Shown: one piece after another, positions 1-16,449 of the stretch
How the letters are laid out: every line of letters begins with the position of its first letter
How positions within the stretch are numbered: position 1 is the stretch's first letter
NCBI RefSeq assembly: GCF_016903815.1
Contig: NZ_CP069973.1
Strand: one strand, 5' to 3'
Length of the DNA stretch: 64,000 bases
Source: Escherichia coli
GTDB taxonomy: Bacteria; Pseudomonadota; Gammaproteobacteria; Enterobacterales; Enterobacteriaceae
The notes under the pieces: model-generated
What the model was told of the DNA's origin: nothing
Database searches by the model: none
Seen by the model: the letters and a program-made list of their open reading frames with translations, nothing else
Made by a program: the position numbers and the translations under genes

Positions 1-510
1 AGACCTGCTGATGGCAAGGTCGACACGCAATCTGCCGGTCCGCCATCAAAAAGCGCGGTGAACGCCTGTGCGGATAACGGAACATCGCGCTCATTTTGCA
101 GTAGCACTTGCGTTAACCGCTGAGCGATGACGTCTTTATGCGCTTCGGCTTGCTCAAGTGTTAATCCGGTCGTCAGCAGCCGCATGCCACAAGAAATATC
201 GGTGCCGATGGCGGCGGGAATGACTAAATCCGGCGTTGAGGCCACCACCGCGCCAACGGGGACGCCATTGCCGGGATGAAAATCTGGCGTCGCGCACGTC
301 TGGCGCACATAACCTGGGTGGTCTGGTAGCTTCGCTTCTGCAAAATCAAGCAGTTGTGTTACTGCTTTTTCTTCCAGCGGCAGTTCGTCCGGCAGCAGTA
401 CGCGGGCACTGGCACCTGATGGACGAGATAATGAAACAATATTGTTGGCGCGGGAAAGTTGGATCCCTTTGCGCAGAAAGGCTTTATCAAGCCTTGAAAG
501 ATGATGCATA
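1..510 (-). CDS. RtcB-family RNA ligase-like protein, N-terminal part (gene continues beyond window start)
   Basis: Manual minus-strand translation from ATG at 510-508 gives MHHLSRLDKAFLRKG...TPDFHPGNGVPVGAVVA...IPAAIGTDISCGMRLL, matching the conserved RtcB metal-binding motifs (PDxHxGxG ... IPAAVGxDIxCGM). Not in the ORF track as a minus-strand ORF because it is truncated by the window edge. Confidence 0.55.
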
Positions 511-760
511 ACGCTGTCCTGAAATATAGACGTTAAACAACCCCCTGTATTGCGAGGGTAATTTTGTCTTTCCGGTCAGCAGCCAGCAAAAGGGAAAGAA
601 AACGCGCGTAGTGTATGTGGCGATAGCAAGTTTTACAAGTGGTAAATCTGGCTTATTGTTAAAGAGGAATTATCTTTTGTGAAGTCTTTTAAGGCCATGA
701 CTCATTCAATTTAACCGGACATAGATAATATATAACATAGGGTATATAAATTTATCATTG

Positions 761-892
761 TATACTTGTCATAATTCAAGTTGCATGTGCTGCATCGATG
801 TTCGCTCACTCAGGTCACTTACTTATGTAAGCTTCTGGAAATTCATTATTTGTTCCCTTCCTGCAACTTGACTTATTTAGAGTATATTCATG
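761..892. repeat. ERIC/IRU intergenic repeat, copy 1
   Basis: Contains caagttgcatgtgctgc...ttcgctcac...agtcacttacttatgtaagct, the reverse complement of the ERIC core (AAGCTTACATAAGTAAGTGACTGGGGTGAGCG); about 85-90% identical by eye to the second copy at 46690-46816. Confidence 0.8.
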
Positions 893-1098
893 TATATGAA
901 TAATATTCTTGCAATAATAGCTTTAAAGTATTGCATGCGGATAACTGAGGTGAAATTCCTGTTTTAGGATTATTGTCACTTTATTTTCCTGGTTAGACAT
1001 ATAGCTGACTGGTTTGTTTATTTGAATTATGATATTCATTAGTGCTACTGTTTTTTATAAAATAATTTTTGAATTGTTATTTTTTCACGGACGGAATT

Positions 1099-2004
1099 AT
1101 GCGAGGAAAAATACCTAAAACGGAGCTGCTGGTGACTTTTGAGGTCGTCGCACGTTATGAAAGTTATACCAGAGCGGCAGAGGAGTTAGCGTTAACCCAA
1201 AGTGCAGTATTCAGACAAGTAAGTGCGCTGGAGGAATTTTTACATACTCCGTTATTTTCACACTCTAAAAAACGCATTTTTCTTAATGATGCAGGGAAGT
1301 ATTACCTGGGGATAGTAAAAGAAACATTAAATAAGCTGGAACGCGATACCAATACCATTATGACCTGGCAGCCTACGGTTCAGGTTATTGAACTTGCCGT
1401 GAATCCTACGTTTAGTACCCACTGGTTAATCCCAAATTTACATGAATTCACAAAGTTACATCCCGATATTATTGTTAATATTCACTCTTTAGCTAATAAC
1501 GGCGATTTTCTTAATCGGGAGTACGATGCTGTCATTATGCGCGAAAATTTTTGCGCGCCCTGGGCGGAAGTAGAATATCTCTTTGATGAGGAGATTTTGC
1601 CGGTATGCAGCGGCAGTTTGCTTGCAATGTCCGATCAAAAACTGTCAGTGGCAGAACTGCTTACAGAGTTACCACTTCTGCATCAAAGTACCCGTATTAC
1701 TGGCTGGGAAGAGTGGTTTGCCTTATCTGGCGTTAGCAGTCCGCTGGTCAACAACGGACCACGTTTCGATTTGCTTTCAATGCTGATTGCCGCCGTGCGC
1801 TCTAATCTCGGCGTGGCGCTGTTACCACGGTTCGCTATTCAACATGATTTGGATAGTGGCGATATGGTGATTCCCTGTGATGTGCCTATTCGTACCGGTA
1901 ATCGTTTTATTATGACGTGGCAGGAAGAGAAGTCTGACTCACCGCACTTGCAGCAATTTCGTGAATGGTTGCTGGCGAAATCGGTTGTACCGCAGGAGAT
2001 GTAA
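1099..2004 (+). CDS. LysR-type transcriptional regulator (likely regulator of the adjacent glutamate-fermentation operon)
   Basis: ORF 1069-2004; N-terminal HTH signature (TFEVVARYESYTRAAEELALTQSAVFRQVSALE) places the likely start at ATG 1099 (MRGKIPK). C-terminal LysR substrate-binding domain length (about 300 aa). Confidence 0.8.
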   Translation: MRGKIPKTELLVTFEVVARYESYTRAAEELALTQSAVFRQVSALEEFLHTPLFSHSKKRIFLNDAGKYYLGIVKETLNKLERDTNTIMTWQPTVQVIELAVNPTFSTHWLIPNLHEFTKLHPDIIVNIHSLANNGDFLNREYDAVIMRENFCAPWAEVEYLFDEEILPVCSGSLLAMSDQKLSVAELLTELPLLHQSTRITGWEEWFALSGVSSPLVNNGPRFDLLSMLIAAVRSNLGVALLPRFAIQHDLDSGDMVIPCDVPIRTGNRFIMTWQEEKSDSPHLQQFREWLLAKSVVPQEM

Positions 2005-2006
2005 AA

Positions 2007-2034
2007 CCTGCGCCTGGCGGGATGCCAGGCGCAG
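2007..2034. terminator. Bidirectional rho-independent-like hairpin between the convergent LysR and adenosyltransferase genes
   Basis: cctgcgcctggc-gggat-gccaggcgcagg perfect GC-rich inverted repeat directly after the LysR stop (2002-2004) and after the end of the minus-strand operon (2038). Confidence 0.6.
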
Positions 2035-2037
2035 TTA

Positions 2038-2640
2038 TTACCAGTCGATACCCGGCTGGGCCTGAATGCCGTTATCAAAAGCATGTTTGACGGGGCGGAT
2101 TTCGCTGACCGTATCCGCCATTTTTAATATCTGACTGTGGCAACCGCGTCCGGTGACAATGACACTTTGTTGTGCCGGGCGGTTTTGCAGAGAAGCGATC
2201 ACTTCTTCGGTATCCAGATAATGGTAAGCCAGCATATAGGTCAGCTCATCAAGCACCACTAAGTCGTAACGCTTGTCAGCCAGCATCCGTTTGCTTTCCG
2301 ACCAGACCTCTTTCGCCGCGTCGATATCCGCTTGCCGGTTCTGTGTCTCCCAGGTAAAACCGGTTCCCATAATATGAAACTCAACCCCCAGCGGCTGGAG
2401 AAGGTTGTATTCGCCGTTGTCCCATTGCCCCTTGATGTACTGCGCAACCCCCACCGTTTTGCCATGACCCACCGCGCGCGTCACAGTACCAAACGCGGCA
2501 GTGGATTTCCCTTTGCCATTGCCGGTGAAAACAATCAAAATCCCTTTTTTCTCTATCGCCGCCGCGATGCGCGTATCGACCTGTTCCTTCAATTTCTGCT
2601 GGCGCTGCACATGCCGTTCAGTTGAAATTCGCGCTTCCAT
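2038..2640 (-). CDS. cob(I)alamin adenosyltransferase (BtuR/CobA/CobO family)
   Basis: 200 aa; P-loop GNGKGKST and overall similarity to BtuR/CobO; last gene of the B12-dependent glutamate mutase operon. Confidence 0.8.
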   Translation of the reverse strand: MEARISTERHVQRQQKLKEQVDTRIAAAIEKKGILIVFTGNGKGKSTAAFGTVTRAVGHGKTVGVAQYIKGQWDNGEYNLLQPLGVEFHIMGTGFTWETQNRQADIDAAKEVWSESKRMLADKRYDLVVLDELTYMLAYHYLDTEEVIASLQNRPAQQSVIVTGRGCHSQILKMADTVSEIRPVKHAFDNGIQAQPGIDW

Positions 2641-2649
2641 TCATTTTCC

Positions 2650-4302
2650 TTAATGTCCCGCAGGGCAACTGGCGCAGCGGTGTTGCTGCTCAAACTGACT
2701 AAAGAAATTATTGCCTTTATCATCTACCAGGATGAATGCGGGCAGATTTTCCACTTCCATCATCCACACCGCTTCCATACCCAGCTCCGGGTATTCCAGG
2801 CAACGCAGACTTTTGACATATTCTTGCGCCAGTAACGCAGCTGCACCGCCAATACTACCCAGATTGAAGCCACCATGTTTGTGACAGGCATCGGTGACCT
2901 GCTGGCTGCGGTTACCTTTCGATAACATCACCAGACTGCCGCCAGCCGCCTGGAAGGTATCGACATAACCGTCCATTCGACCGCCCGTGGTTGGACCCAG
3001 TGAACCGCAGGCCATGTTCTCCGGTGTTTTCGCCGGGCCAGCGTAATAGACAATATGATGCTTCAGGTAATCCGGCATCGGTTCGCCGCTATCCAGCCGC
3101 GCTTTTATTTTGGCGTGGGCGATATCGCGCGCCACTACGATGGGACCATTTAACGACACGCGGGTGCCTACCGGTAATCTGGCGAGATCCTGCATCACGT
3201 CACGCAACGGACGGTTTAGATCCAGTTGTACATGTGGCGCGTGATTTTCTTCCCGCAGTGAGGCTGGAATATATTGCCCCGGATTGTGTTCGAGTTTTTC
3301 CAGCCAGATACCGTGCTTGTTAATTTTTGCTTTGATATTGCGATCGGCAGAACAGGAGAGCGCCATAGCTATCGGGCAAGAGCCACCGTGACGCGGCAGA
3401 CGAATGACGCGAATATCATGAGCGAAATATTTACCCCCAAATTGCGCACCAATACCAAATTGCTGACTGGCCTCGAGCAACACTTTTTCCAGCTCAATAT
3501 CACGGAATGCTTGTCCCTGCTCGTTTCCGCTGGTGGGCAAATTGTCGTAATATTTCGTTGAGGCCAGCTTGGCAACTTTTAAGGTTTGATCGGCTGAAAG
3601 CCCTCCGACGACAAAGGCGATGTGGTAAGGCGGGCAGGCAGCGGTGCCCAGCGATTTCATTTTTTCGATTAAAAATGCGGTCAGTTTTTCTGGTTGCAAT
3701 AAGGATTTGGTTTCCTGATAAAGTGCGGCTTTATTGGCGGAGCCGCCCCCTTTATTAACACAGAGAAAATGGTACTCATTACCAGCGACAGCGCTGATAT
3801 CAATCTGCGCCGGGAGATTGGTTTGCGTATTGACTTCGGTATACATATCCAGCGGCGCATTTTGTGAAAAGCGCAGATTATTTTCCTGGAAAGTACTGTA
3901 AATGCCTTTGCTTAAGGCTTCAGCGTCGTTACCTCCCGTCCATATCTGTTGCCCTTTACTGGCAACAATAGTTGCGGTGCCGGTATCCTGACAGTTGGGT
4001 AATATCCCTTTTGCTGAGACTTCAGCATTACGTAATAACTGCAACGCAACGTATTTATCATTACTACTGGCCTGCGGATCGTTAAGAATGCTGGCGACCT
4101 GTTGCAAATGAGCGGAACGTAAGAAAAAAGAGGCTTCATAAAATGCCTGCCGGGCAAGCAGCGTTAATGCTTCAGGAGCGATTTTTATCACTTCTTCGCC
4201 GTCTAATTCCGTTACTGTAATATGTTGATCGCTAATTAATGTATATTCTGTACCGTCTTTATTTTGTAGAAACGGTTCTTGCCAGATAAATGGTTTGGAC
4301 AT
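2650..4302 (-). CDS. fumD: Class I (Fe-S) fumarate hydratase family protein, predicted mesaconase/fumarase
   Basis: 550 aa, full-length FumA/FumB-like protein with conserved Cys ligands; sits in a methylaspartate-pathway operon where mesaconate hydration is the required step. The fumD name is from memory of the literature, not verified. Confidence 0.8.
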
Positions 4303-4409
4303 ATTTCACTTTTCACCTTAAACGTTAGTGTTACTTAATTGCCGTCTAACTTCATGATCCGGCTTATAAAAATGCGTAGTCATTGGCTTCTGATTGCTTA
4401 AGATCCCCC

Positions 4410-5690
4410 TCAGGGCAGAGCAACGTTCGATTCATTGGGTTTTAATGCTTTACCCCGACAACCCTCGCCGAAATGTTCGCCTTCCCACCGACTCACCATC
4501 GCAGCGCCCATTGCGTTGCTCATGACGTTTGTCGCGGAACGCCCCATATCAAGGAACGGATCAACGCCCATCAGCAAGATCAGCCCCGCTTCCGGAATAT
4601 TGAACTGGTTGAGCGTGGCGGCGATAACCACCATTGAGGCGCGTGGTACGCCAGCCATTCCTTTCGAGGTCAACATCAGGATCAACAGCATGGTGATTTG
4701 CTCACCGATGGATAAATGGATATTGCAGGCCTGGGCGATGAAAACTGTGGCGAAGGAGCAGTAGGCCATTGATCCAACGAGATTAAATGAGTAGCCAATG
4801 GGTAAGACAAAGCTGGCAATTTTGGGGGAAACGCCAAATTGCTCCAGTTTTTCAAGCGTTCCCGGAAAAGCCGCTTCAGAACTGGATGTGGTAAATGCCA
4901 GCAGGGCGGGTTCCGAAAGGGCGCGGGTCAGGCGTCTGATGCAGGGGCCGACATAAACGATGGCCAGACCGATAAGCAGCACCCAAAGTAATAACATGGT
5001 GAAATAAAATTCACCCATAAAGATCCCGGCGCTCACCATAACTGCCAGTCCTCGTTCAGCAATCAATGCTGAAATAGCAGCGAATACGGTCAGGGGAGCG
5101 AAGAGCATGACGTAGCCAGTGAGCTTTAACATGGCATGTGCCAGCGAATCTAAGGCGTGAACGATGGCGCTGCCTTTCTCGCCAATCGCCGTCAGGCTAC
5201 AGCCGAGGAAAATTGAGAACACCACGATTTGCAAAATTTCATTGTGCGCCATGGCATCGACAATGCTGGTGGGGAAAGCATGCGAAATAAATACTTTTAG
5301 CGTAAAGGGTTCTGACGCGACCACTCCGGTGGTTTCGGCTCCGTGTGCAACAAAATTAATTCCTGTGCCTGGCATGAAGAAATTTACTGTTATCAAGCCT
5401 AAGGCAATTGACAGCAATGAGGCGCAAATAAATAAAAAGAGTGTTTTAGAAAAAATACGACCAAGGGCTTTGGCATCTCCCATTTTAGCTATACCTACCA
5501 CCAGGGTAGAGGCCACTAACGGAGCGATAATCATTTTTATCAGTCGTAAGAAAATCGTCGTGAATATCGATATTTCTTGCGCATAGAGTTTTGCGGTTTC
5601 CGGTGAAGCAGTGTTATTGAGCACTACGCCGATAATCACTCCAAGTACCAGCGCCAAAAGAATCATCGTGGTTAAACTTATTTTCTTCAT
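4410..5690 (-). CDS. Dicarboxylate/amino acid:cation symporter (DAACS, GltP/DctA-like), probable glutamate or C5-dicarboxylate transporter
   Basis: ORF 4410-5711; multiple TM segments and DAACS family similarity. Start trimmed to ATG 5690 (MKKISLTT), which is preceded by a GGAGGA ribosome-binding site. Confidence 0.8.
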   Translation of the reverse strand: MKKISLTTMILLALVLGVIIGVVLNNTASPETAKLYAQEISIFTTIFLRLIKMIIAPLVASTLVVGIAKMGDAKALGRIFSKTLFLFICASLLSIALGLITVNFFMPGTGINFVAHGAETTGVVASEPFTLKVFISHAFPTSIVDAMAHNEILQIVVFSIFLGCSLTAIGEKGSAIVHALDSLAHAMLKLTGYVMLFAPLTVFAAISALIAERGLAVMVSAGIFMGEFYFTMLLLWVLLIGLAIVYVGPCIRRLTRALSEPALLAFTTSSSEAAFPGTLEKLEQFGVSPKIASFVLPIGYSFNLVGSMAYCSFATVFIAQACNIHLSIGEQITMLLILMLTSKGMAGVPRASMVVIAATLNQFNIPEAGLILLMGVDPFLDMGRSATNVMSNAMGAAMVSRWEGEHFGEGCRGKALKPNESNVALP

Positions 5691-5850
5691 TTTTTCCTCC
5701 ATCAGGTGCACGGCGATAAATCAGAATCAGGAGAAGTAGATGCCTGAATAGAGATTCAGGCACCTACCTGCTATTACAACCTTACAAATAGCTGAAGTGT
5801 TGAACTGCAATAAGTGACGGGATGTCAGTTGGCTAAAAGTATTCGGATTT

Positions 5851-6168
5851 TTACAAATCGAAACTCATATTTAATAAAGGTGCATGTTGCTGTGCACCAT
5901 AGACATCATTGTCACCTACATTCCCGGAGATAATATCTCGTGGCATGACGATTTTTACTGCGTTAGAAGGATCAAACCAGACAATACGGTGAATAAAGTC
6001 AGGTTCAACATGATATAAGCGCGCAATCAGTTCTGGGGTTAATTGCCCTGATGATTTAACTCGCTCATAGTTTTCTTTCGTTTTAAATAAAATATCTAAA
6101 ACCAGTTCGTAAGGTCCGGCATTTTTCGAACGAATGACTTGCGCCAGTGAGACAATTGACTGTTTCAT
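5851..6168 (-). CDS. Small conserved protein of unknown function (DUF4387-like), partner of the upstream DUF1446 gene
   Basis: 105 aa ORF whose start overlaps the stop of the 456-aa ORF by 4 nt (translational coupling); family assignment is from memory. Confidence 0.6.
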   Translation of the reverse strand: MKQSIVSLAQVIRSKNAGPYELVLDILFKTKENYERVKSSGQLTPELIARLYHVEPDFIHRIVWFDPSNAVKIVMPRDIISGNVGDNDVYGAQQHAPLLNMSFDL

Positions 6169-7535
6169 GCCTGAACTCCTTCTGGCGTCACCTGTTCAAT
6201 ATGGAAATCAAAACGCAGAGCGTCGTTGGCTTCAATCAGGTGATATATGGAAAATTCGTATACTGGCCCGCCCTGGATATCAGAAGGGGAGAACGGGAAC
6301 GCCAGGTTGCCTGCGGTAGCGATGCGGTTTTCATAGCCGTAGTGCAGCATAGTAGAGCGCACCAGCGAGCAAACGCTGTTGGCAATCTCCTGGGTCGGCG
6401 CAACTACATCTAGGACAATCCCCAGCTCATGCCCGGCAGTTTGCATCGGTTCATGGTCGCCCATCACCCCGTTTTTGCCGTACAGGTGGAAATTGATGTG
6501 AATGCTGTCATCGTCGAGCGACAGGTTACGCGAAACGCTGGTTTTGACTTCATCGATGATTTTATCGATCCCGGCGATCATGATCGGGTCGCGCGTTCCG
6601 GCGATGGTCAGACAGCGGAAGCCCACCCGTCGCGCACCTTCCAGTTTCAGGGCATACGGCGTTTCTTCATGCTTAGAACCGCTGACGTACACTTCGCTGT
6701 CATTGACCGCTTTAAATGTGCAGCCTTTCAGGTTCAACACGCCGCCAGGTCCAGGCAGGAAGTAGGGATCGGATTTCTCATACAGTGTGTGTGCAGCCGC
6801 TGACGTTTCGGTAAATTTACGCTTCGGATTAAATGTCTTCAGCGTAAAGCCGTTGTCATCAATGATGCCCATCGCACAGTCAGAGCCTGAGCCGGGCGTT
6901 GCGGCGATTGCCGCGCATTCAAGGATTTTCCCACAATGCAGCGCCAGACCTTCATCAAAGCCTTGCATGATCGGAAGCGCAGCAAAGCAGGCCGGGTCGT
7001 AAGCGCGCCCGCCCAGCACCACTTGCGCGCCTTCTTTCAGCGCCTGCTGGAAGGGTTCGATGCCCATTTGCGCGACGATATACGTACTTTCGTCAATCGC
7101 GTCGTGGGTTAACGGCGGGACAAAATCCAGCGCCGTGATTTTGCCGTTATCCAGCGCCTGGTGGACGATGGCTTTGTCAACGTCTGCCGGGATCAGCGCC
7201 ATCGAGAACGAGAGGTGCTCTTCCCGGGCAATCTCATGAATTATTTCTCGGCACCACTCCAGGTGTGGTGCGGCACCAGAACCGCCAGCCGTTCCGATCA
7301 CCACCGGTATATTATTTTGCACGCCTGCGGTGATCATATAGCGCAGATCGCGCTTGACCCCTGCGCGATCGGTAAACGGTTTGCCTGCCCCGAGGTAGTG
7401 GGGGCCTGGATCGGAAGAGCCTGCATCAACGGCGATCAGATCGGGCGATTCTGCCATCGCTTTGCGGAAGCTCTCTTCCGGGAATCCATACCCGAGGATT
7501 GCCGTTGGCGATAAGACTTTAAAAGAACGAGCCAT
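6165..7535 (-). CDS. AtuA-like / DUF1446 family protein of unknown function
   Basis: 456 aa ORF, operon-internal between methylaspartate ammonia-lyase and the transporter; resembles the AtuA (acyclic terpene utilisation) DUF1446 family by length and N-terminal motif. No characterised catalytic function known to me. Confidence 0.6.
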   Translation of the reverse strand: MARSFKVLSPTAILGYGFPEESFRKAMAESPDLIAVDAGSSDPGPHYLGAGKPFTDRAGVKRDLRYMITAGVQNNIPVVIGTAGGSGAAPHLEWCREIIHEIAREEHLSFSMALIPADVDKAIVHQALDNGKITALDFVPPLTHDAIDESTYIVAQMGIEPFQQALKEGAQVVLGGRAYDPACFAALPIMQGFDEGLALHCGKILECAAIAATPGSGSDCAMGIIDDNGFTLKTFNPKRKFTETSAAAHTLYEKSDPYFLPGPGGVLNLKGCTFKAVNDSEVYVSGSKHEETPYALKLEGARRVGFRCLTIAGTRDPIMIAGIDKIIDEVKTSVSRNLSLDDDSIHINFHLYGKNGVMGDHEPMQTAGHELGIVLDVVAPTQEIANSVCSLVRSTMLHYGYENRIATAGNLAFPFSPSDIQGGPVYEFSIYHLIEANDALRFDFHIEQVTPEGVQA

Positions 7536-7538
7536 TTG

Positions 7539-8780
7539 TTAATCCTTAGCCTGCAACAGCGCGATAGTACGATTCATTTCGTTGAAGACGATATCGAGGC
7601 CTTCGTCAAAGCCCATCCCTGGTTTTACCAGCATACGCATGGGGCGAGCGGCAAGGGCGACGTGGACACAGGTGCGGGCACTGACATCAGTTTCATTGCA
7701 GGTGCCGCCCTGGTACGCTTCCATGTTGTGGCTGTTGCAATAAAGAACTGCATCGACGATGTTGTGAATACTGCCCAGATCCGGGGTTTTGATTTGCACC
7801 ATGTGGCAACTGGCGGCATCGGTGAAATCAACAATATCCTGGTAGGTGTTACACCATTCATCGGCCACTAGTTTCACGCCGGAACCGAGGCGCGTCAGCT
7901 CTTTGGTAATCGCGGTCAGCAGGCGAATTTGATCGGGCTTGTTACCGGCATCGACCGGACCTTCAATGTAGAGCGGCAGGCCTTGCGCTTCTTTTTCCAG
8001 GCTGGCGATGTATTGCGCACAGCGAAGCGGATCCATATCGAAGATCAGACCGATAGTGCCGTATACATCGATGTGCAGGGTAGGGTGGTAGCGTGCGCTG
8101 GTGCGCTTGCTCAGAATACGATCCGACAGCCAGCGGACATATTCGCGCAGTTTTTCACCTTTAAAGCCCAGTTTCTCTTCGACGTTATTAATCAGTGCAT
8201 GGGGCAGCACGTCGATGCCCTTAAGGATCATCTTATCGACGGCGATATATCGATCGTCGCCGCTCTGACCAAATAATGGAATGGATTCCGCCACGCGTGG
8301 CAACTGCCATTCATCACAGACCACTTCAGTTTTCAGACGGCCGGTTGCCAGCGCGGTAGCATCAAGCAGCGCCTGTGATAATCCGTAGCGCACGGCGGTA
8401 TGCAGCAAGTTGCCGTCAATACGCAATTTGTCGAAGAAACGGGCATTCGGCAGGAAAGTATCCACATCGCGGCCTACCAGTAATGGCTTGATATGGTCGT
8501 TGAGGAACGGAATAAAGTGCTCCGCGAGGAACAGTGGATCGCGACCACCTGCCCCGGAATACTGTACGGCAGCACAGTCACCTACGGCGACCGCGCCGTT
8601 TTCCAGAATCAACTGTACCGATACGCACTCCCCGGCCTGACGTACGGCGTTAAACCCCTGTGTTACTGGCTCCCCGGTATAAAAAAAACCGTCGTGACCC
8701 GCTCCGTTTTTTATCGCCTGCTGGTCATCGAAATAGAATGAGGAGTAGCCAGCGGTAAAAAGGGCCTGTTTTATTTTCAT
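7539..8780 (-). CDS. 3-methylaspartate ammonia-lyase (methylaspartase, enolase superfamily)
   Basis: 413 aa, classic methylaspartase length and enolase-superfamily architecture; immediately downstream of the glutamate mutase genes. Confidence 0.85.
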   Translation of the reverse strand: MKIKQALFTAGYSSFYFDDQQAIKNGAGHDGFFYTGEPVTQGFNAVRQAGECVSVQLILENGAVAVGDCAAVQYSGAGGRDPLFLAEHFIPFLNDHIKPLLVGRDVDTFLPNARFFDKLRIDGNLLHTAVRYGLSQALLDATALATGRLKTEVVCDEWQLPRVAESIPLFGQSGDDRYIAVDKMILKGIDVLPHALINNVEEKLGFKGEKLREYVRWLSDRILSKRTSARYHPTLHIDVYGTIGLIFDMDPLRCAQYIASLEKEAQGLPLYIEGPVDAGNKPDQIRLLTAITKELTRLGSGVKLVADEWCNTYQDIVDFTDAASCHMVQIKTPDLGSIHNIVDAVLYCNSHNMEAYQGGTCNETDVSARTCVHVALAARPMRMLVKPGMGFDEGLDIVFNEMNRTIALLQAKD

Positions 8781-10225
8781 TATGGTCTTCCTATTAATTT
8801 ACTGTGGGATACAGCATTGATGTCATCTACAACCATCTGGAATGTCGGTTGGCGTCCTTCAAAGCGTGCGCGTTCCGCAACGTAATCGTGGTGGAGGTCG
8901 AGAATATCTTTTGGCAATGGAACGGCTCCGGCTTCCAGTACGCGTATCGCGCCGGTGTTGTCACGGACCGGAAGAATTTTGCCCGCGTTACACGCGGCTG
9001 GTGCAAATGGCACATCCAGTACGCCCGCTTCAAATGCCAGCACCGTACCGCGCGCAATATCACCATTACCCAGTTCGAACACTTTATTCAGTACCGCGCG
9101 AACCTCGCTCTTAATCAGTTCAATTTCCAGTTCAACCGCAGGGCACGGCGGGAATTTCTGCTCATTGACCATGTTGAGCATCTGGCGGGAGGCTTTCAGC
9201 CCCTGAATGTTGGCAGCGGCAGTCGGGATTCCCCAGGCTTCGTGAGGGCTTTTGGTGATGACTTTGGTGGCACCAGACATCCCCGCGACGGCTGCACCCC
9301 AGGAGATAATGGCGAACGCTTTCGATTCGTCTTCCGGAAAGCCGCCCATCCACTGGTGAAATACGGTACTTAATTCATAGTCGGTATAGCCATAGTTCTG
9401 AAAGTATTCGTGTGCAAGTTCACGCAGAGACTGGATCGCCGCGACATCCTGCGTCAGGCTGCCGACCTGTCCATAACCAACGGTGATAGATTTCACACCC
9501 TGTTCCAGCGCCAGTAATCCTTCGATTATCGCGATAGAGTGCGAGATAAACGGCGGGATCAGCGTACCCGTTAGTGGGCCAAATGGTTCGCGGTTGATGC
9601 GGATCCCGTGTTCTTCATACATCCCCATTAAACGGTCGCAGTACTGCCAGTCGCGGATCGATTTTTCCAGCGTTACGCGCTTGGCATACGGAATATTGTA
9701 GGAAATGCCGCCGCCTTCATAACTGGTAAAGCCGCTGGCCATCGAGATTTCAGCCAGCAGACGCGCATCTGGCGTGCCGTGGCGGATCTGTAGCGGTTTT
9801 TGCAGAGTTTCGGTGAGGCGACGGCAAGCTGCGACGCCGTGGTTAACGACCGGTAAACCGTTCAGTTTAGAGGTTCCGGCTTCGATGGATTTTTTAATCC
9901 CTACAGCAGCTTCTTCGTACCGATTCAGACGGGTATATGCATCGATGGTGCTCGGCAGCAGATCGCACTCTTCTTGTAGTGTTTTCAGTAGTTCGATGTG
10001 TTCGTCCATCAGCGCCACGCCTGCGCGCGGTTGGCTAAGAGTTTTACCTTCCTTGTCTGCTTTCAGCAGGGCAAGAGAGAAGCGTTTATGCTCAGGAATG
10101 GTTTGTTGGTATTTAACGCCATCTTCAAAGTTTTCAACATCCTTGCCGGTTTCCCAGGTTTTCAATACCTGTTGCCGCTCGGTCATGAATTCGTTATGGG
10201 TTAATTTCTTATTTCGAAGTTCCAT
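8780..10225 (-). CDS. Glutamate mutase epsilon (large catalytic) subunit, MutE/GlmE
   Basis: 481 aa, TIM-barrel large subunit length; operon context with the S and L components. Confidence 0.85.
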   Translation of the reverse strand: MELRNKKLTHNEFMTERQQVLKTWETGKDVENFEDGVKYQQTIPEHKRFSLALLKADKEGKTLSQPRAGVALMDEHIELLKTLQEECDLLPSTIDAYTRLNRYEEAAVGIKKSIEAGTSKLNGLPVVNHGVAACRRLTETLQKPLQIRHGTPDARLLAEISMASGFTSYEGGGISYNIPYAKRVTLEKSIRDWQYCDRLMGMYEEHGIRINREPFGPLTGTLIPPFISHSIAIIEGLLALEQGVKSITVGYGQVGSLTQDVAAIQSLRELAHEYFQNYGYTDYELSTVFHQWMGGFPEDESKAFAIISWGAAVAGMSGATKVITKSPHEAWGIPTAAANIQGLKASRQMLNMVNEQKFPPCPAVELEIELIKSEVRAVLNKVFELGNGDIARGTVLAFEAGVLDVPFAPAACNAGKILPVRDNTGAIRVLEAGAVPLPKDILDLHHDYVAERARFEGRQPTFQMVVDDINAVSHSKLIGRP

Positions 10226-10243
10226 TGATTGCAGCCTTAATTG

Positions 10244-11632
10244 TTATAGGGTTAAGCATTGAATACTGGTGCGCGCGGCGGCCAGTGGATCGACTCTGGC
10301 GACGTTTGCCAGCAGTGGTAATAGCCCCCGGGAATCGCGGTAATATTCAAATTCGGTCGGTAAGAGAATGCGTTTACCGTCGTCGTTTAACTCGCGGTAT
10401 TTCAACCAGTGATGCATATCGAACTGACTGGCACGCGAGAGCCATCCGCCGGAACCCACGACTTTACGCACGGTTGTCAGGTCACGTCCCATCTGTAAAT
10501 CGACATTGCCGACGCAGGTGCAGACCTCTTTTTTGGTGCCCGCATGTCTTTCGGTGGCATAACCCACACACAGTCCGGCCAGGACGGTATCGAAATATTT
10601 TTCTTCTGCATTCGCGGGTAAGTAGTCGGGATGAGCGACTAGATGACGGAGGTAATGATAAAAAGCGTCCAGCTGTGCGGGTTGCTGAGCAAAATTCACA
10701 TTGACTAACTCTTTCGCACTTTCACCAACCACCATTGCCGAGACGCGCATTCCCAGATCGCCTTCCACCGTCCGTTTCACGAAGGGTTCCGGTACGCCAT
10801 GTAAAACAGTGTCGGGCGAGAGCGTGTTGGCACAGGCTGAATAGACATCGGTGGTTGCGCCGCCCATGTCGATCAGCATGAACTCCTTCCAGCTGTGATC
10901 GACGTTACTGATTGCCTTAACCAGTTCAAAGACCGTCCATGGTGTCGGCATTGGTTCTTCGCCTGTTTTATCAACAATGACATCCAGCCCTTTCCCTTTA
11001 ACGATGCGTTTAAGGAATATGTCGCAGATAGCCTGGCGTGCAGCTAAAGGGTTCGGATGGTCAAGATCGGGCAGAACGTTGTCGACGATGGTCAGGTCTT
11101 TATGCCCTAGGATCTCCTGCACCTCGTCCTGAATATCCCGGTTTCCGGCATAAATAATGGCGCAGTCGAGTTTGGATTCTGCCAGCACACGGGCGTTATT
11201 CAGGCCGTAGCTTTCTTCTCCGCCGTCGGTGCCGCCGGTGAACAAGAGAATATCGGGCTGCGTTTCTTCCAGTGCCTGGATATCACGGCGGTTCAGCTTG
11301 TAGGCGTAATATTGCGCAATTTTAGCCCCCGCAGAGTGAGCGGTTACTTTCGCGGTTTCCAGGGTGATAGAAGGCACCAATCCCATTGCGGCAACCGCCA
11401 GCCCACCTTTGGCAGAGGAGGAATACTTCAATGTAACCTCACCGCTGTTAAACAGGGGGAGGGCATTATCTACGTTTAACACCAGGTTCAGGCTGGAGAA
11501 AAACCCCTTCGCCAGATGATGGGTGGTGGTTGGGGTCAGTACGTGGTTAACCAACGTTAACGCGTCCCCCTCCCGGGCGAAGAGGGCTGCTTTGGTCCAC
11601 GTCGAACCAATATCGACAGAGACGATTTGCAT
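10244..11632 (-). CDS. Glutamate mutase L component (MutL/GlmL, reactivating chaperone-like ATPase)
   Basis: 462 aa ORF between the S and E subunits, the typical glmS-glmL-glmE order; ASKHA-like N-terminus ([18 protein letters not shown]). Confidence 0.8.
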   Translation of the reverse strand: MQIVSVDIGSTWTKAALFAREGDALTLVNHVLTPTTTHHLAKGFFSSLNLVLNVDNALPLFNSGEVTLKYSSSAKGGLAVAAMGLVPSITLETAKVTAHSAGAKIAQYYAYKLNRRDIQALEETQPDILLFTGGTDGGEESYGLNNARVLAESKLDCAIIYAGNRDIQDEVQEILGHKDLTIVDNVLPDLDHPNPLAARQAICDIFLKRIVKGKGLDVIVDKTGEEPMPTPWTVFELVKAISNVDHSWKEFMLIDMGGATTDVYSACANTLSPDTVLHGVPEPFVKRTVEGDLGMRVSAMVVGESAKELVNVNFAQQPAQLDAFYHYLRHLVAHPDYLPANAEEKYFDTVLAGLCVGYATERHAGTKKEVCTCVGNVDLQMGRDLTTVRKVVGSGGWLSRASQFDMHHWLKYRELNDDGKRILLPTEFEYYRDSRGLLPLLANVARVDPLAAARTSIQCLTL

Positions 11633-12081
11633 CAGATTGCCTCTTCAAGAATGCGAGTATCAACGTTATGACGTTGGTTGATATCGTGGGCCATCAGCTG
11701 ACAAACATCTTCTAAGTCATGACTTGGGGAAAAGACGCGATCAAATCCCATCTCTTTGAACTTGGTTTCCACGTCAGCGAAGTCATGTTTTCCGACCACC
11801 AGGTTACCGCCCACATAGAGCAGGATGTTACCCAGCCCACGCTCGATGCAGCGTTCGCGCATGCCCAGACAATCGATATCGCCATGCCCATAGATAGAGG
11901 AGACGACAATCGCGTCAGCACCAGTTTCAATGGCAGCATCAATATATTCGTCCTGGCTGACCATTACGCCCAGATTAATAACTCTGAAGTCATGGTTGCT
12001 AAAAACGCGGTCCAGAACTTTATTGCCTACTGCATGGCAGTCCGCGCCAATAACGCCAATCACAAGTGTTGCTTTCTTCAT
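11632..12081 (-). CDS. Glutamate mutase sigma (B12-binding) subunit, MutS/GlmS
   Basis: ORF 11632-12144; cobalamin-binding DxHxxG motif ([11 protein letters not shown]). Start trimmed to ATG 12081 ([12 protein letters not shown]), preceded by AAGGA, giving 149 aa. Confidence 0.8.
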
Positions 12082-12627
12082 GGGTAATCCTTTGTAAGAC
12101 AGAGAGTAAAATAAGTTACACACGTCGTATTTATGGCCGCTCATAACGGCACAGGTTTAATATCACAGGAGTGTCTTTATCTGACCGTAATGTTGCAATT
12201 GATCTATTTTCAAAATGTCTTTCGGGAAATGATTGTTTAAAGTGTGTTTTCAAATTCTCATTTTAATTCAGTGTGTTATGTCAACTAATGTCATGAATGT
12301 TAAATTTTTAAAATTAACTTGATTTGATGTATTGAGATAATTGTGATCAACTTCTAATTTGCATTTTTGTGACGTGGCTTTAGCCATGAGTAAATGCATT
12401 TCATAAAAGTTAAGTCGAATTTCACTGCAATTCATCTCTGCTTAATGTAAAAATAATGTTGAAAATAACAAATAATTAATGATTCATGCGAATTATGACC
12501 TTTGTTAGCTCTTTTGATTTTTCGTAAAAAAGAAAAGTACATGAAGGTGCTACCAGTACGAGTAACGTTAATCAAAAGTTTTATTACGTCTGGCAATAAC
12601 GCAGGCCATTTTCGCGACTGGGTGGAT

Positions 12628-13050
12628 TTAATCAGTATAATCCTCATACAATAGGTCAGGATTTACTGAACCGTTAACGGGGATTTGGTGTTGAAATTTA
12701 GAAATGGCGGAGTCAATTAATGAAGACAATATCGGAAAAATGACAGTGTCAGAATTAATTTCAATTAATCCTTCTCGTTGTTGACCAAAAAAGATATTTA
12801 TCTTGATTTCATTTGTACTACGGCAATCAATATGCAGTAATTTTTGATCGCTGAGATTTTCTGTTTCATAAATGTTTTTGGCGATAGTCGGATGTATTGA
12901 TGCCAGACATCTGCTCAGATAAGCCAGATCCTTTAGGGAACACCCCGCTGAGTAGAGGATGTCAGAGAATTTTTGTGTGTCAACTGTTGTCTCTGAAGCG
13001 TATGTTGCATTGACAGGAAGGGTGTTGAAAGAGATTTGAGATGGGATCAT
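12628..13050 (-). CDS. Hypothetical protein, no recognisable family (orphan, AT-rich)
   Basis: 140 aa ORF in a strongly AT-rich block, co-directional with and 80 bp downstream of the 314-aa ORF; no motif I can assign. Confidence 0.5.
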   Translation of the reverse strand: MIPSQISFNTLPVNATYASETTVDTQKFSDILYSAGCSLKDLAYLSRCLASIHPTIAKNIYETENLSDQKLLHIDCRSTNEIKINIFFGQQREGLIEINSDTVIFPILSSLIDSAISKFQHQIPVNGSVNPDLLYEDYTD

Positions 13051-13130
13051 TATTTAAATCTTTCCGTGAGTAATAAAAATTAATCCCCGGGCATTGTTTG
13101 GCAATATTTGCCACAGGGAATATATAAAAA

Positions 13131-14075
13131 TTAAAGTATTTGATTGGCATCGGTTAACTGATCAATAACCAGTGCCAGATTGGTAAACATTTTGAAAAAG
13201 CGATACTGGCTCGGAATATCTCTTTCAAAGACGAAACATTCAATGTCATTGTTTGAAAAATAAAGGACTAGTGTTGCTGATTCGTCAGGAAAAATATGGA
13301 AATATATCTGGTTACCAGAAGGAGGATAGTCCAGAAGAAGGGTATCTTTGCCCGTCACATACCTGTTGTGGTCGTGGATGCTGCGCTCACACTTCATCAG
13401 AGGTGTCATGATACTCATGTATTCATCTGATGTTAATATATTAAAATCACCATCCATTTTAAAGAAACGATAAAGTAACAGTACATCCTCTTGCGTAACC
13501 GGTTCGTTTGTTTTTAGAGGGAAATAAGTGGGAACCAGAAGATGAGGTTCTAATCTATTTTGTTGAGCGCTATAACTAAATTTGAACATAAATTCCGGAT
13601 CGCTCATCAATTGAGCGACATAATTATGCCTGGCTTCAAAAATTTTAACTTTTATCAGGTTAAATAAGTCTGTTTCGTCATCCTGTATTAAAAGACATTG
13701 ACCATAGCAGCCAGGCTTTTTTTCATTATAAGCAGAAACGGTTATTCTGTCAGGAGTGTCAACGTTATATCCAAAAGCCAGATAGTGACCTTCCTCATCG
13801 AGATTTGTTTCCAGGTTATTTAAATTCATCACATGAAGTGTTTGCAATGCTGATTCAATGAGCTGTTGACTCTCTGAGGTAAATGTTTCGCGCTGCGTTG
13901 TATAAAGTGTATCGATTCCAACGACTATCCGATGTGGATCAAGGATGGCGGCAATCATCTTTATTACCTGCACAGTCATGGGTGATGTCATTGATTCTTT
14001 ATCTGTTTTTAGAGGATCATTAGATGGCCAACCTGAGAAGCGATTGACAGCAGAACTGATATTATCAGGACTCAT
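13131..14075 (-). CDS. Hypothetical protein, no recognisable family (orphan, AT-rich)
   Basis: 314 aa ORF, uninterrupted, in AT-rich DNA between the glutamate operon and the cydA regulatory region; codon usage atypical for the E. coli core. Confidence 0.55.
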   Translation of the reverse strand: MSPDNISSAVNRFSGWPSNDPLKTDKESMTSPMTVQVIKMIAAILDPHRIVVGIDTLYTTQRETFTSESQQLIESALQTLHVMNLNNLETNLDEEGHYLAFGYNVDTPDRITVSAYNEKKPGCYGQCLLIQDDETDLFNLIKVKIFEARHNYVAQLMSDPEFMFKFSYSAQQNRLEPHLLVPTYFPLKTNEPVTQEDVLLLYRFFKMDGDFNILTSDEYMSIMTPLMKCERSIHDHNRYVTGKDTLLLDYPPSGNQIYFHIFPDESATLVLYFSNNDIECFVFERDIPSQYRFFKMFTNLALVIDQLTDANQIL

Positions 14076-14880
14076 AGCAGCAACCTCATTGTAATCAAGC
14101 GAGGCGCTGAGCGTACTCGGCTATAGAAAAACTAACTTGCAAAAATCGCTCATTTTTCATTTATCAGGCGAAAGTGGTCTCTGTTCACTCAGAAACAATC
14201 ACTCCCGCTAAGTCATACCTGTTTCATCGATACATTTAAGTGATTATTACTAATGAAACAATAACATAACGGGCTTACGGCCGGTGCTCATAAAGGCAAC
14301 AATCAATTAACTTTGATAAAAATATGTTATGTAAAATAGCAACAAATTGGCTAATCTAATCAATTGGTATTATAAAAAGTGGATAGGGCGGTTCTGTTAA
14401 ATAAAACACTGGTTTTTTATCTATACCTTTTCATTGTAATAATTGTGTTGCATAAATATTTCACAATAAATTAACAATAAAATCACCAATGATCTATGGT
14501 TTATACATAATTAACATATTTGGTTGGTTTTGATATAAATCAATTTTTAATTCTTGAAAAAAATCTGCAAAACACGATAAATTGTCGTAGATCAAATTGG
14601 TGAGATCGTGACAATTTCGCTATAAATTGATCACTGTCGAAAAATGCAAATTTGCTCAATAAAAACCTGTTTATTGTAAGGATTTTGCGGCGTAATATAA
14701 TTACGGGATCAATTTGGTTTATTCATTAACATATTTGTAACTTTTTTATCATTGTCTTTTCCTCTTTTGATGAAATGGCAACGATAGAGGCGAGCAAATA
14801 ATTTTGTATTGGGGCATGCGTGTGACCCTTTCTAACGGGGTTCACTCTCGGAGTCTTCATGCGATGAGCAAGGAGTCATG
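14076..14880 (+). promoter_or_regulatory. Long AT-rich cydA upstream control region (multiple promoters, ArcA/FNR/H-NS regulated in K-12)
   Basis: About 800 bp non-coding AT-rich DNA directly upstream of cydA, as expected for the cydAB control region; individual sites not resolved by eye. Confidence 0.6.
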
Positions 14881-16449
14881 ATGTTAGATATAGTCGAACT
14901 GTCGCGCTTACAGTTTGCCTTGACCGCGATGTACCACTTCCTTTTTGTGCCACTGACGCTCGGTATGGCGTTCCTGCTGGCCATTATGGAAACGGTCTAC
15001 GTCCTTTCCGGCAAACAGATTTATAAAGATATGACCAAGTTCTGGGGCAAGTTGTTTGGTATCAACTTCGCTCTGGGTGTGGCTACCGGTCTGACTATGG
15101 AGTTCCAGTTCGGGACTAACTGGTCTTACTATTCCCACTATGTAGGGGATATCTTCGGTGCGCCGCTGGCAATCGAAGGTCTAATGGCCTTCTTCCTCGA
15201 ATCCACCTTTGTAGGTCTGTTCTTCTTCGGTTGGGATCGTCTGGGTAAAGTTCAGCATATGTGTGTCACTTGGCTGGTGGCGCTCGGTTCAAACCTGTCC
15301 GCACTGTGGATTCTGGTTGCGAACGGCTGGATGCAAAACCCAATCGCGTCCGATTTCAACTTTGAAACTATGCGTATGGAGATGGTGAGCTTCTCCGAGC
15401 TGGTGCTTAACCCGGTTGCTCAGGTGAAATTCGTTCACACTGTAGCGTCTGGTTATGTGACTGGCGCGATGTTCATCCTCGGTATCAGCGCATGGTATAT
15501 GCTGAAAGGTCGTGACTTCGCCTTCGCTAAACGCTCCTTTGCTATCGCTGCCAGCTTCGGTATGGCTGCCGTTCTGTCTGTTATTGTTCTGGGTGATGAA
15601 TCTGGTTACGAAATGGGCGACGTGCAGAAAACCAAACTGGCTGCTATTGAAGCCGAGTGGGAAACGCAACCTGCGCCTGCTGCCTTTACTCTGTTCGGCA
15701 TTCCTGATCAGGAAGAGGAGACGAACAAATTTGCGATCCAGATCCCTTACGCGCTGGGCATCATTGCAACGCGTTCCGTGGATACTCCAGTTATCGGCCT
15801 GAAAGAACTGATGGTGCAGCATGAAGAACGCATTCGTAACGGGATGAAGGCGTACTCTCTGCTCGAACAACTGCGTTCTGGTTCTACCGACCAGGCGGTT
15901 CGTGACCAGTTCAATAGCATGAAGAAAGACCTCGGTTACGGTCTGCTGCTGAAACGCTATACGCCAAACGTGGCTGATGCGACTGAAGCGCAGATTCAAC
16001 AGGCAACCAAAGACTCCATTCCGCGTGTAGCGCCGCTGTACTTCGCGTTCCGTATCATGGTGGCGTGTGGCTTCCTGCTGCTGGCAATCATCGCGCTCTC
16101 TTTCTGGAGTGTCATCCGCAACCGCATTGGCGAGAAAAAATGGCTGCTGCGCGCCGCGCTGTACGGTATTCCGCTGCCGTGGATTGCTGTAGAAGCGGGC
16201 TGGTTCGTGGCTGAATATGGCCGCCAACCGTGGGCTATCGGTGAAGTGCTGCCGACAGCTGTGGCGAACTCGTCACTGACCGCAGGCGATCTCATCTTCT
16301 CAATGGTGCTGATTTGCGGCCTGTATACCCTGTTCCTGGTGGCAGAATTGTTCTTAATGTTCAAGTTTGCACGCCTCGGCCCAAGCAGCCTGAAAACCGG
16401 TCGCTATCACTTTGAGCAGTCTTCCACGACTACTCAGCCGGCACGCTAA
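14881..16449 (+). CDS. cydA: Cytochrome bd-I ubiquinol oxidase subunit I
   Basis: Translation [28 protein letters not shown]... matches CydA; ORF track starts one Met earlier (14878). Confidence 0.97.

Follow-up and report, generated by a model that had tools for sequence, protein, structure and literature searches.

The fate of citramalate in enterobacteria, where the methylaspartate pathway reaches this intermediate, was stated as an explicit open question in 2015. The citrate lyase, isocitrate lyase and methylisocitrate lyase of E. coli O157:H7 displayed no citramalate lyase activity (PMC4682846), and a separate citramalate-cleaving enzyme is therefore needed. The extract assays of that study were run without a nucleotide. 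A DUF1446 gene of unknown function, located after mal in enterobacteria, was remarked on in the same study (PMC4682846) by the laboratory that later reported on cmlAB in a preprint. In that preprint, cmlAB of Raoultella planticola converted mesaconate-derived citramalate into pyruvate and acetate in vivo; an acetyl-CoA auxotroph required the cmlAB plasmid to grow on mesaconate via FumA, and isotope labelling confirmed the carbon route from mesaconate through citramalate to pyruvate and acetate (bioRxiv 10.64898/2026.01.16.699985). Here, we analysed a 64,000-nucleotide stretch of an Escherichia coli chromosome (contig NZ_CP069973.1, referred to as the window), in which two coupled genes lie within a methylaspartate-pathway operon. 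By full-length orthology, the pair very probably represents CmlAB of E. coli, a citramalate lyase of two subunits that would perform the last step of the pathway.

Database comparison was performed for both proteins. The larger protein (CmlA, 456 residues) matched the Pfam family AtuA (PF07287) over residues 63–394 with E = 4e-19, and the smaller protein (CmlB, 105 residues) matched DUF4387 (PF14330) over residues 6–101 with E = 2.9e-39, while NCBIfam held no model for either. The PDB sequence search aligned CmlA with 9erq_A/9evf_A over 456/456 residues at 92% identity (E = 1.7e-290), and CmlB with 9erq_B over residues 1–104 (E = 5e-57). The identity of CmlB to chain B of 9ERQ and 9EVF was about 85%, as obtained by tblastn to the identical L002 locus of Klebsiella michiganensis. 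The depositors named the two molecules "Citramalate lyase, subunit A (cmlA)" and "subunit B (cmlB)". Entry 9ERQ is titled "Citramalate lyase - AMPPNP - citramalate complex" (released 2025-10-22) and entry 9EVF "Citramalate lyase - ADP - pyruvate complex" (released 2025-10-08). The crystallised chain A was 100% identical to cmlA of the K. michiganensis locus, and the gene order of that locus is the same as that of the window, namely glmS-glmL-glmE-mal-cmlA-cmlB-gltP-fumD-cobO. Cleavage of citramalate to pyruvate and acetate can hence be assigned to the orthologue group with high confidence, and to the E. coli pair, judged by its sequence, with slightly less.

The preliminary description of this DNA, which was made from the letters alone, had placed a glutamate mutase, a methylaspartase, a mesaconase, a transporter and an adenosyltransferase in the operon, and the annotation of the identical region in RefSeq together with NCBIfam confirmed all of them. 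It had further described the 456-residue and 105-residue genes as translationally coupled, with a 4-nt overlap, between methylaspartase and the transporter, which the open reading frames and the sequence bore out. Its proposal that the pair is a candidate for the citramalate step, in a cluster lacking an obvious citramalate lyase, agrees with the orthology to 9ERQ/9EVF and the activity of cmlAB in the preprint, and the structure search it had suggested (Foldseek against PDB) recovered 9EVF. Its view of the pair as uncharacterised did not hold, given that the structures were deposited as CmlA and CmlB and only the Pfam, NCBIfam and RefSeq names lag behind. The other roles it had offered, namely mesaconate processing, cofactor handling or repair, and a substrate-specific accessory, found no support. 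The function of CmlAB is already established by others, so that the assignment made here is correct and no new discovery. The credit belongs elsewhere, as the structures have been public since October 2025 and the enzyme was being used by January 2026; what is added here is a confirmation, the extension of the function to E. coli, and comparative data.

To place the pair among other species, one genome per species was scanned, which gave at least 583 cmlA loci. The best 80 of these, from 80 other species and with 56–92% identity, were compared together with the E. coli reference (81 loci), and their gene content was scored by tblastn with the proteins of the window operon. The 80 loci span Enterobacterales, Rhodocyclales, Riflebacteria, Aminicenantes, Spirochaetes, Lentisphaerae, Bacillota, Desulfobacterota, Planctomycetota and others. 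The cmlB gene was located directly downstream of cmlA in 80/81 loci, the single exception being a contig end, and the estimated gap between the two genes was mostly -25 to +30 nt, most commonly -4. The mal gene was directly upstream of cmlA in 74/81 loci, and glmE was found in 64/81. This conserved synteny upholds the claim that the pair belongs to the pathway. Equal frequency in unrelated contexts, which the preliminary description had set against its own proposal, was not what we observed: the group at 56% identity or more is adjacent to mal at the frequency given above, and outside this group only relatives at about 45% or less lie elsewhere.

A search for a classical citramalate lyase hidden nearby, performed by tblastn with the E. 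coli CitC/D/E/F/X/G proteins as queries, gave no match at the E. coli reference locus, and each of the 80 loci from other species was likewise free of such homologues within 10 kb; a concealed enzyme of this type near the pair was thus rejected. The lack of Cit homologues across the 80 loci indicates that CmlAB replaces, rather than accompanies, the classical lyase of the clostridial clusters. Seven loci carried cmlAB without mal, namely three from Shewanella and those of Accumulibacter, Desulfospira, a Holophagales metagenome-assembled genome (MAG) and a Desulfobacula MAG. In the five of these seven with long flanks, cmlAB stood alone among unrelated genes. These isolated pairs (57–67% identity; L030 from Accumulibacter, L060/L076/L077 from Shewanella and L067 from Desulfospira) had HrpA helicase, proteases, FadE and RNA polymerase as neighbours, and no glutamate mutase or methylaspartase was found within 10 kb of them. 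This implies that those organisms obtain citramalate by another route or that their CmlAB acts on a different substrate.

It is highly improbable that the pair instead assists another enzyme of the cluster, for instance in B12 or cofactor handling, in repair, or as a helper of methylaspartase, or that it acts in terpene utilisation. Such readings draw on names: some NCBI records call CmlA homologues "3-methylaspartate ammonia-lyase", and the Pfam family is named after acyclic terpene utilisation. The crystal complexes, however, hold citramalate and pyruvate rather than B12 or methylaspartate, the two cmlAB genes by themselves enable a host that lacks the rest of the cluster to cleave citramalate, and the solitary pairs occur without glm or mal genes. 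Neither geranyl-CoA carboxylase (AtuC/F) nor the hydratase (AtuE) was found in the annotated 20 kb around the window pair, and the absence of an atu-cluster context argues that the pair is not an enzyme of the Atu pathway. As to the names themselves, records P0002, P0060 and P0072 are CmlA homologues misnamed as "3-methylaspartate ammonia-lyase", a propagated misannotation which had already been remarked on (PMC4682846). The RefSeq name of the window cmlA, "acyclic terpene utilization AtuA family protein", is likewise misleading.

The structure of CmlA was modelled with AlphaFold, which gave a predicted local distance difference test (pLDDT) value of 96.6 with an alignment of 124 sequences, compared with 38.7 from the single sequence. 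The model predicts an N-terminal parallel α/β domain followed by a C-terminal β-rich domain. Two loops, DAGSxDPGP (37–45) and GTAGGSGA (81–88), were located at the C-terminal ends of strands in the model and were invariant among the orthologues. A total of 171 alignment columns were invariant among 22 orthologues and are kept in E. coli by construction, including both loops, R177, H200, K203 and E206, whereas over the 124 family members G87 and R177 were invariant. CmlB contains the motifs RSKNxGP and DxYGAQQH. Apart from 9EVF, the Foldseek search against PDB returned only matches to M20-peptidase dimerisation domains with a template-modelling (TM) score of about 0.15, which are uninformative. 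Resemblance to the amino-acid-kinase fold was weak, with a high root-mean-square deviation and approximately 120–140 of 456 residues aligned, and may reflect a generic α/β sandwich.

Taken as a pathway, glutamate would be converted to methylaspartate by GlmSE with GlmL, to mesaconate by Mal, to (S)-citramalate by FumD, and finally to pyruvate and acetate by CmlAB. The enzyme would act as a heteromeric (S)-citramalate lyase requiring neither coenzyme A (CoA) nor acyl carrier protein, in which CmlA is the presumed large catalytic subunit and CmlB the presumed obligatory small partner. Since a non-hydrolysable ATP analogue was used to trap the substrate and ADP to trap the product, turnover of ATP is suggested, and the nucleotide probably participates in the chemistry. 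The most likely route is acyl-phosphate activation. ATP would first phosphorylate the C4 carboxylate of citramalate; the acyl phosphate would then stabilise the C3 carbanion for cleavage of the C2–C3 bond, as the thioester does in CitDEF-type lyases; and the phosphoryl group would return to ADP or leave as acetyl phosphate, to be recovered by acetate kinase. The net products would be pyruvate and acetate with no net cost of ATP, as would be expected given that such a cost would cancel the single ATP obtainable from pyruvate. The invariant DAGSxDPGP and GTAGGSGA loops, G87 and R177 fit a nucleotide-dependent chemistry.

Several points weigh against this picture. The lyase activity on record is that of the Raoultella orthologue rather than of the E. 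coli pair, and expression of the E. coli cluster has never been observed (PMC4682846). A primary description of CmlAB was not found in the literature searched, so that the enzymology rests on the names given by the depositors, the entry titles and a preprint from users of the enzyme. That preprint makes no mention of ATP, has free acetate as the product and describes growth that needed up-regulation of Acs (bioRxiv 10.64898/2026.01.16.699985). Furthermore, ackA or pta was linked to cmlAB in 0/3 bacterial clusters with Pfam-annotated neighbours.

These points bear on two other accounts of the nucleotide. It is possible, although doubtful, that CmlAB is a citramalate lyase in which the nucleotide has only a structural or allosteric role, for example as a sensor of energy charge, and in which a direct metal-assisted retro-aldol cleavage releases acetate as in isocitrate lyase. 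The preprint indeed presents a direct cleavage to pyruvate and acetate and discusses reversibility for acetate, the up-regulation of Acs is consistent with free acetate as the product, and the likeness of CmlA to amino-acid kinases is weak. Nevertheless, AMPPNP with substrate and ADP with product is the usual way of trapping a reaction that turns over ATP, and an unactivated carboxylate is a poor stabiliser of a carbanion; every other citrate or citramalate lyase forms a thioester first (PMC4682846). The second account, which we consider unlikely, is a stoichiometric use of ATP, in which citramalate and ATP yield pyruvate, acetyl phosphate and ADP, and acetate kinase regains the ATP or Pta makes acetyl-CoA. 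In its favour, the two-carbon product is missing from the ADP–pyruvate complex; this route would leave the fermentation energy-neutral at the citramalate step; and a fungal AtuA–DUF4387 fusion is encoded at a distance of 7 kb from a gene for acetate kinase, although this is one isolated case. On the other hand, Pta could have given acetyl-CoA directly, yet the auxotroph needed up-regulation of Acs (the pta/ackA status of the strain is not stated), and the three annotated bacterial clusters have no linked ackA or pta. Acetate as the reported product, together with the demand for Acs, thus argues against release of acetyl phosphate.

Outside Enterobacterales, a third gene accompanied the pair. 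It encodes a protein of about 313–318 residues with a Walker A motif (GVIGAEGSGKSTLI) and was located directly downstream of cmlB in 43/55 non-enterobacterial loci (L024-L081), where it often precedes the fumarase gene. The identity among these P-loop proteins by tblastn was 45–100%. Examples are found at 11677-12618 of L087, 11712-12665 of L086 and 11698-12654 of L088, and the window has none. Beyond the P-loop itself, the protein had no match in Pfam, NCBIfam or PDB. The gene was absent from all of the Enterobacterales loci compared, E. coli included, and from the five stand-alone cmlAB pairs with long flanks. As the gene is missing from the loci of the order to which Raoultella belongs, the source of the cmlAB used in vivo, the lyase evidently works without it.

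The wider family was surveyed in a set of 5.8 billion proteins, in which 6816 of the 8000 candidates scored were CmlA homologues at E≤1e-5; among clusters at 50% identity, 2385 representatives were found at E≤1e-3. Relatives at about 45% identity or less were still AtuA and DUF4387 pairs or fusions, in unrelated neighbourhoods. All of the long representatives (18/18, 608–1109 residues) carried a CmlB-like C-terminal domain fused to the AtuA domain, and this fusion in other family members indicates that CmlA and CmlB work as one unit. The long members were considered as the AtuA of bacterial atu clusters, and this was rejected, since each of the four examined in their genomic context was a fungal gene with unrelated neighbours. 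The fungal AtuA–DUF4387 protein is a single fused chain of 608–621 residues, 35–41% identical to CmlA (L083, L089, L090). One of these fusions adjoins a gene of the MmgE/PrpD family, another is the one near acetate kinase, and a metagenome contig from the Joint Genome Institute (JGI) with fungal-type neighbour genes also carries the fused form. Tentatively, AtuA with DUF4387 might constitute a large unrecognised class of ATP-coupled C–C lyases, in which a free carboxymethyl group is activated as an acyl phosphate in place of the thioester and the P-loop protein is a further component. If this were true, the class would comprise 2385 clusters, always with the two parts as neighbouring genes or as one fusion, including the true AtuA and the fungal fusions, and CmlAB would be its first solved member.

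The features of the window operon and its surroundings are listed in Table 1. The 2 kb surrounding cmlAB were 100% identical to E. coli strain 7/2 and many more strains, and the gene names follow the RefSeq annotation of the identical region in strain 7/2. The order given there is glmS, glmL, glmE, methylaspartate ammonia-lyase, "AtuA family protein", "DUF4387 domain-containing protein", dicarboxylate/amino-acid:cation symporter, class I fumarate hydratase and cobO.

Table 1. Coordinates of the methylaspartate operon and adjoining features in the window.
Feature	Description	Position	Strand	Basis
LysR-family regulator	Convergent, adjoins cobO	1099..2004	+	RefSeq; best NCBIfam match GcvA-like, under cut-off
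Hairpin	Terminator-like, 11 pairs (9 G-C), directly 3' of cobO	2008..2034	-	Hairpin analysis
cobO	Cob(I)yrinic acid a,c-diamide adenosyltransferase, last operon gene	2038..2640	-	RefSeq; NCBIfam TIGR00708, 246 bits
fumD	Class I fumarase/mesaconase, source of (S)-citramalate	2650..4302	-	NCBIfam NF011921 equivalog, 1280 bits
Symporter	GltP/DctA-family dicarboxylate/amino-acid:cation symporter	4410..5690	-	RefSeq; NCBIfam DctA/GltP matches under equivalog cut-offs
Hairpin	Perfect 15-bp hairpin, CUCU loop, without clear U-tract, located in the cmlB–transporter gap (159 nt)	5735..5768	-	Folding
cmlB	Probable citramalate lyase small subunit, 105 aa, ATG start, Pfam DUF4387	5851..6168	-	Open reading frame list
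cmlA	Probable citramalate lyase large subunit, 456 aa, ATG start, Pfam AtuA/DUF1446	6165..7535	-	Open reading frame list
mal	Methylaspartate ammonia-lyase, 3 nt upstream of cmlA	7539..8780	-	RefSeq
glmE	Glutamate (methylaspartate) mutase subunit E	8780..10225	-	RefSeq
glmL (mutL)	Glutamate mutase accessory/reactivating protein	10244..11632	-	RefSeq and locus comparison
glmS	B12-binding subunit S of glutamate mutase	11632..12081 (RefSeq start)	-	RefSeq and locus comparison
Hypothetical gene	140 aa, between glmS and cydA	12628-13050	-	RefSeq "hypothetical protein"
Hypothetical gene	314 aa, between glmS and cydA	13131-14075	-	RefSeq "hypothetical protein"

The genes are tightly packed. The TGA of cmlA and the ATG of cmlB share the sequence ATGA, with AAGGAG located 8 nt upstream of the cmlB start. 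The methylaspartase stop is separated from the cmlA ATG by 3 nt, and AAGGA precedes that ATG. For glmS, a mechanically called open reading frame extends to 12144 (170 residues, from an upstream ATG), whereas RefSeq and the homologues favour 149 residues with a start at 12081 (MKKATLVIG…). FumD has been characterised biochemically (PMC4682846).

The gap between cmlB and the transporter gene had a minimum free energy of -41.4 kcal/mol (z = -2.7 relative to shuffled sequences), and its 15-bp hairpin matched no family in Rfam. This hairpin may be a partial terminator or a stabiliser of the mRNA that divides the operon into two modules, glmSLE-mal-cmlAB and gltP-fumD-cobO. The hairpin directly after cobO is the probable end of the operon. 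Although the operon is B12-dependent, no cobalamin riboswitch or other Rfam family reached gathering score within positions 1-16000. The LysR-family gene is a candidate regulator of the operon; a regulator of this family beside the cluster was termed a putative LysR-type transcriptional regulator (LTTR) in Fig. 5 of PMC4682846. Between glmS and cydA, the two hypothetical genes lie in a stretch with 35–37% GC, compared with ~52% in the operon, and had no match in NCBIfam or PADLOC. They appear to belong to the island of the operon, whose insertion site lies between mngB and cydA. The island is carried by 1125 of 5426 complete E. coli genomes, about one in five, and the methylaspartate cluster has been reported in 90.6% of O157:H7 strains (PMC4682846).

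CmlAB answers the question of 2015 on the enterobacterial fate of citramalate (PMC4682846), and the cluster would, with it, encode a complete pathway from glutamate to pyruvate and acetate. Thousands of database entries are named "AtuA family", "DUF4387" or "3-methylaspartate ammonia-lyase", and renaming is possible for those at about 56% identity or more that are adjacent to mal. For metabolic engineering, a two-gene lyase that works without CoA or acyl carrier protein stands in for the six-gene CitCDEFXG system, and has already been used in this manner.

Among the known systems, the closest is the CmlAB of Raoultella planticola and Klebsiella (9ERQ, 9EVF), to which the window pair is orthologous over its full length, with the same adjacency of the two genes and the same citramalate-producing neighbours; the difference is confined to the host species. 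The classical lyases for citramalate and citrate (CitDEF with CitC/X/G, as in Clostridium tetanomorphum and E. coli citCDEFXG) perform the same overall reaction at the same end of the pathway (PMC4682846). There is no sequence relationship between the two systems, and neither Pfam nor NCBIfam gave a Cit match for either CmlAB protein. In contrast to CitDEF, CmlAB has no acyl carrier protein subunit, no genes for the synthesis of a prosthetic group and no thioester, and it binds an adenine nucleotide. With the enzymes of the amino-acid-kinase fold (aspartokinase, N-acetylglutamate kinase and carbamate kinase), no sequence similarity to CmlA was detected. AtuA shares the Pfam family PF07287 with CmlA, although the match of CmlA to that family is only at E = 4e-19, and its length of about 600 residues fits a fusion of AtuA and DUF4387. 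The reaction proposed for AtuA, from a tertiary carbinol-CH2-COO- to a ketone and acetate, cleaves the same bond as CmlAB (PMC4847356). AtuA differs in that its substrate is the CoA ester of a C12 acid, its genes are found alongside geranyl-CoA carboxylase in atu clusters, and its activity is putative. The assignment of CmlAB therefore makes the old proposal for AtuA more credible, as both would release acetate by the same cleavage at a tertiary carbinol.

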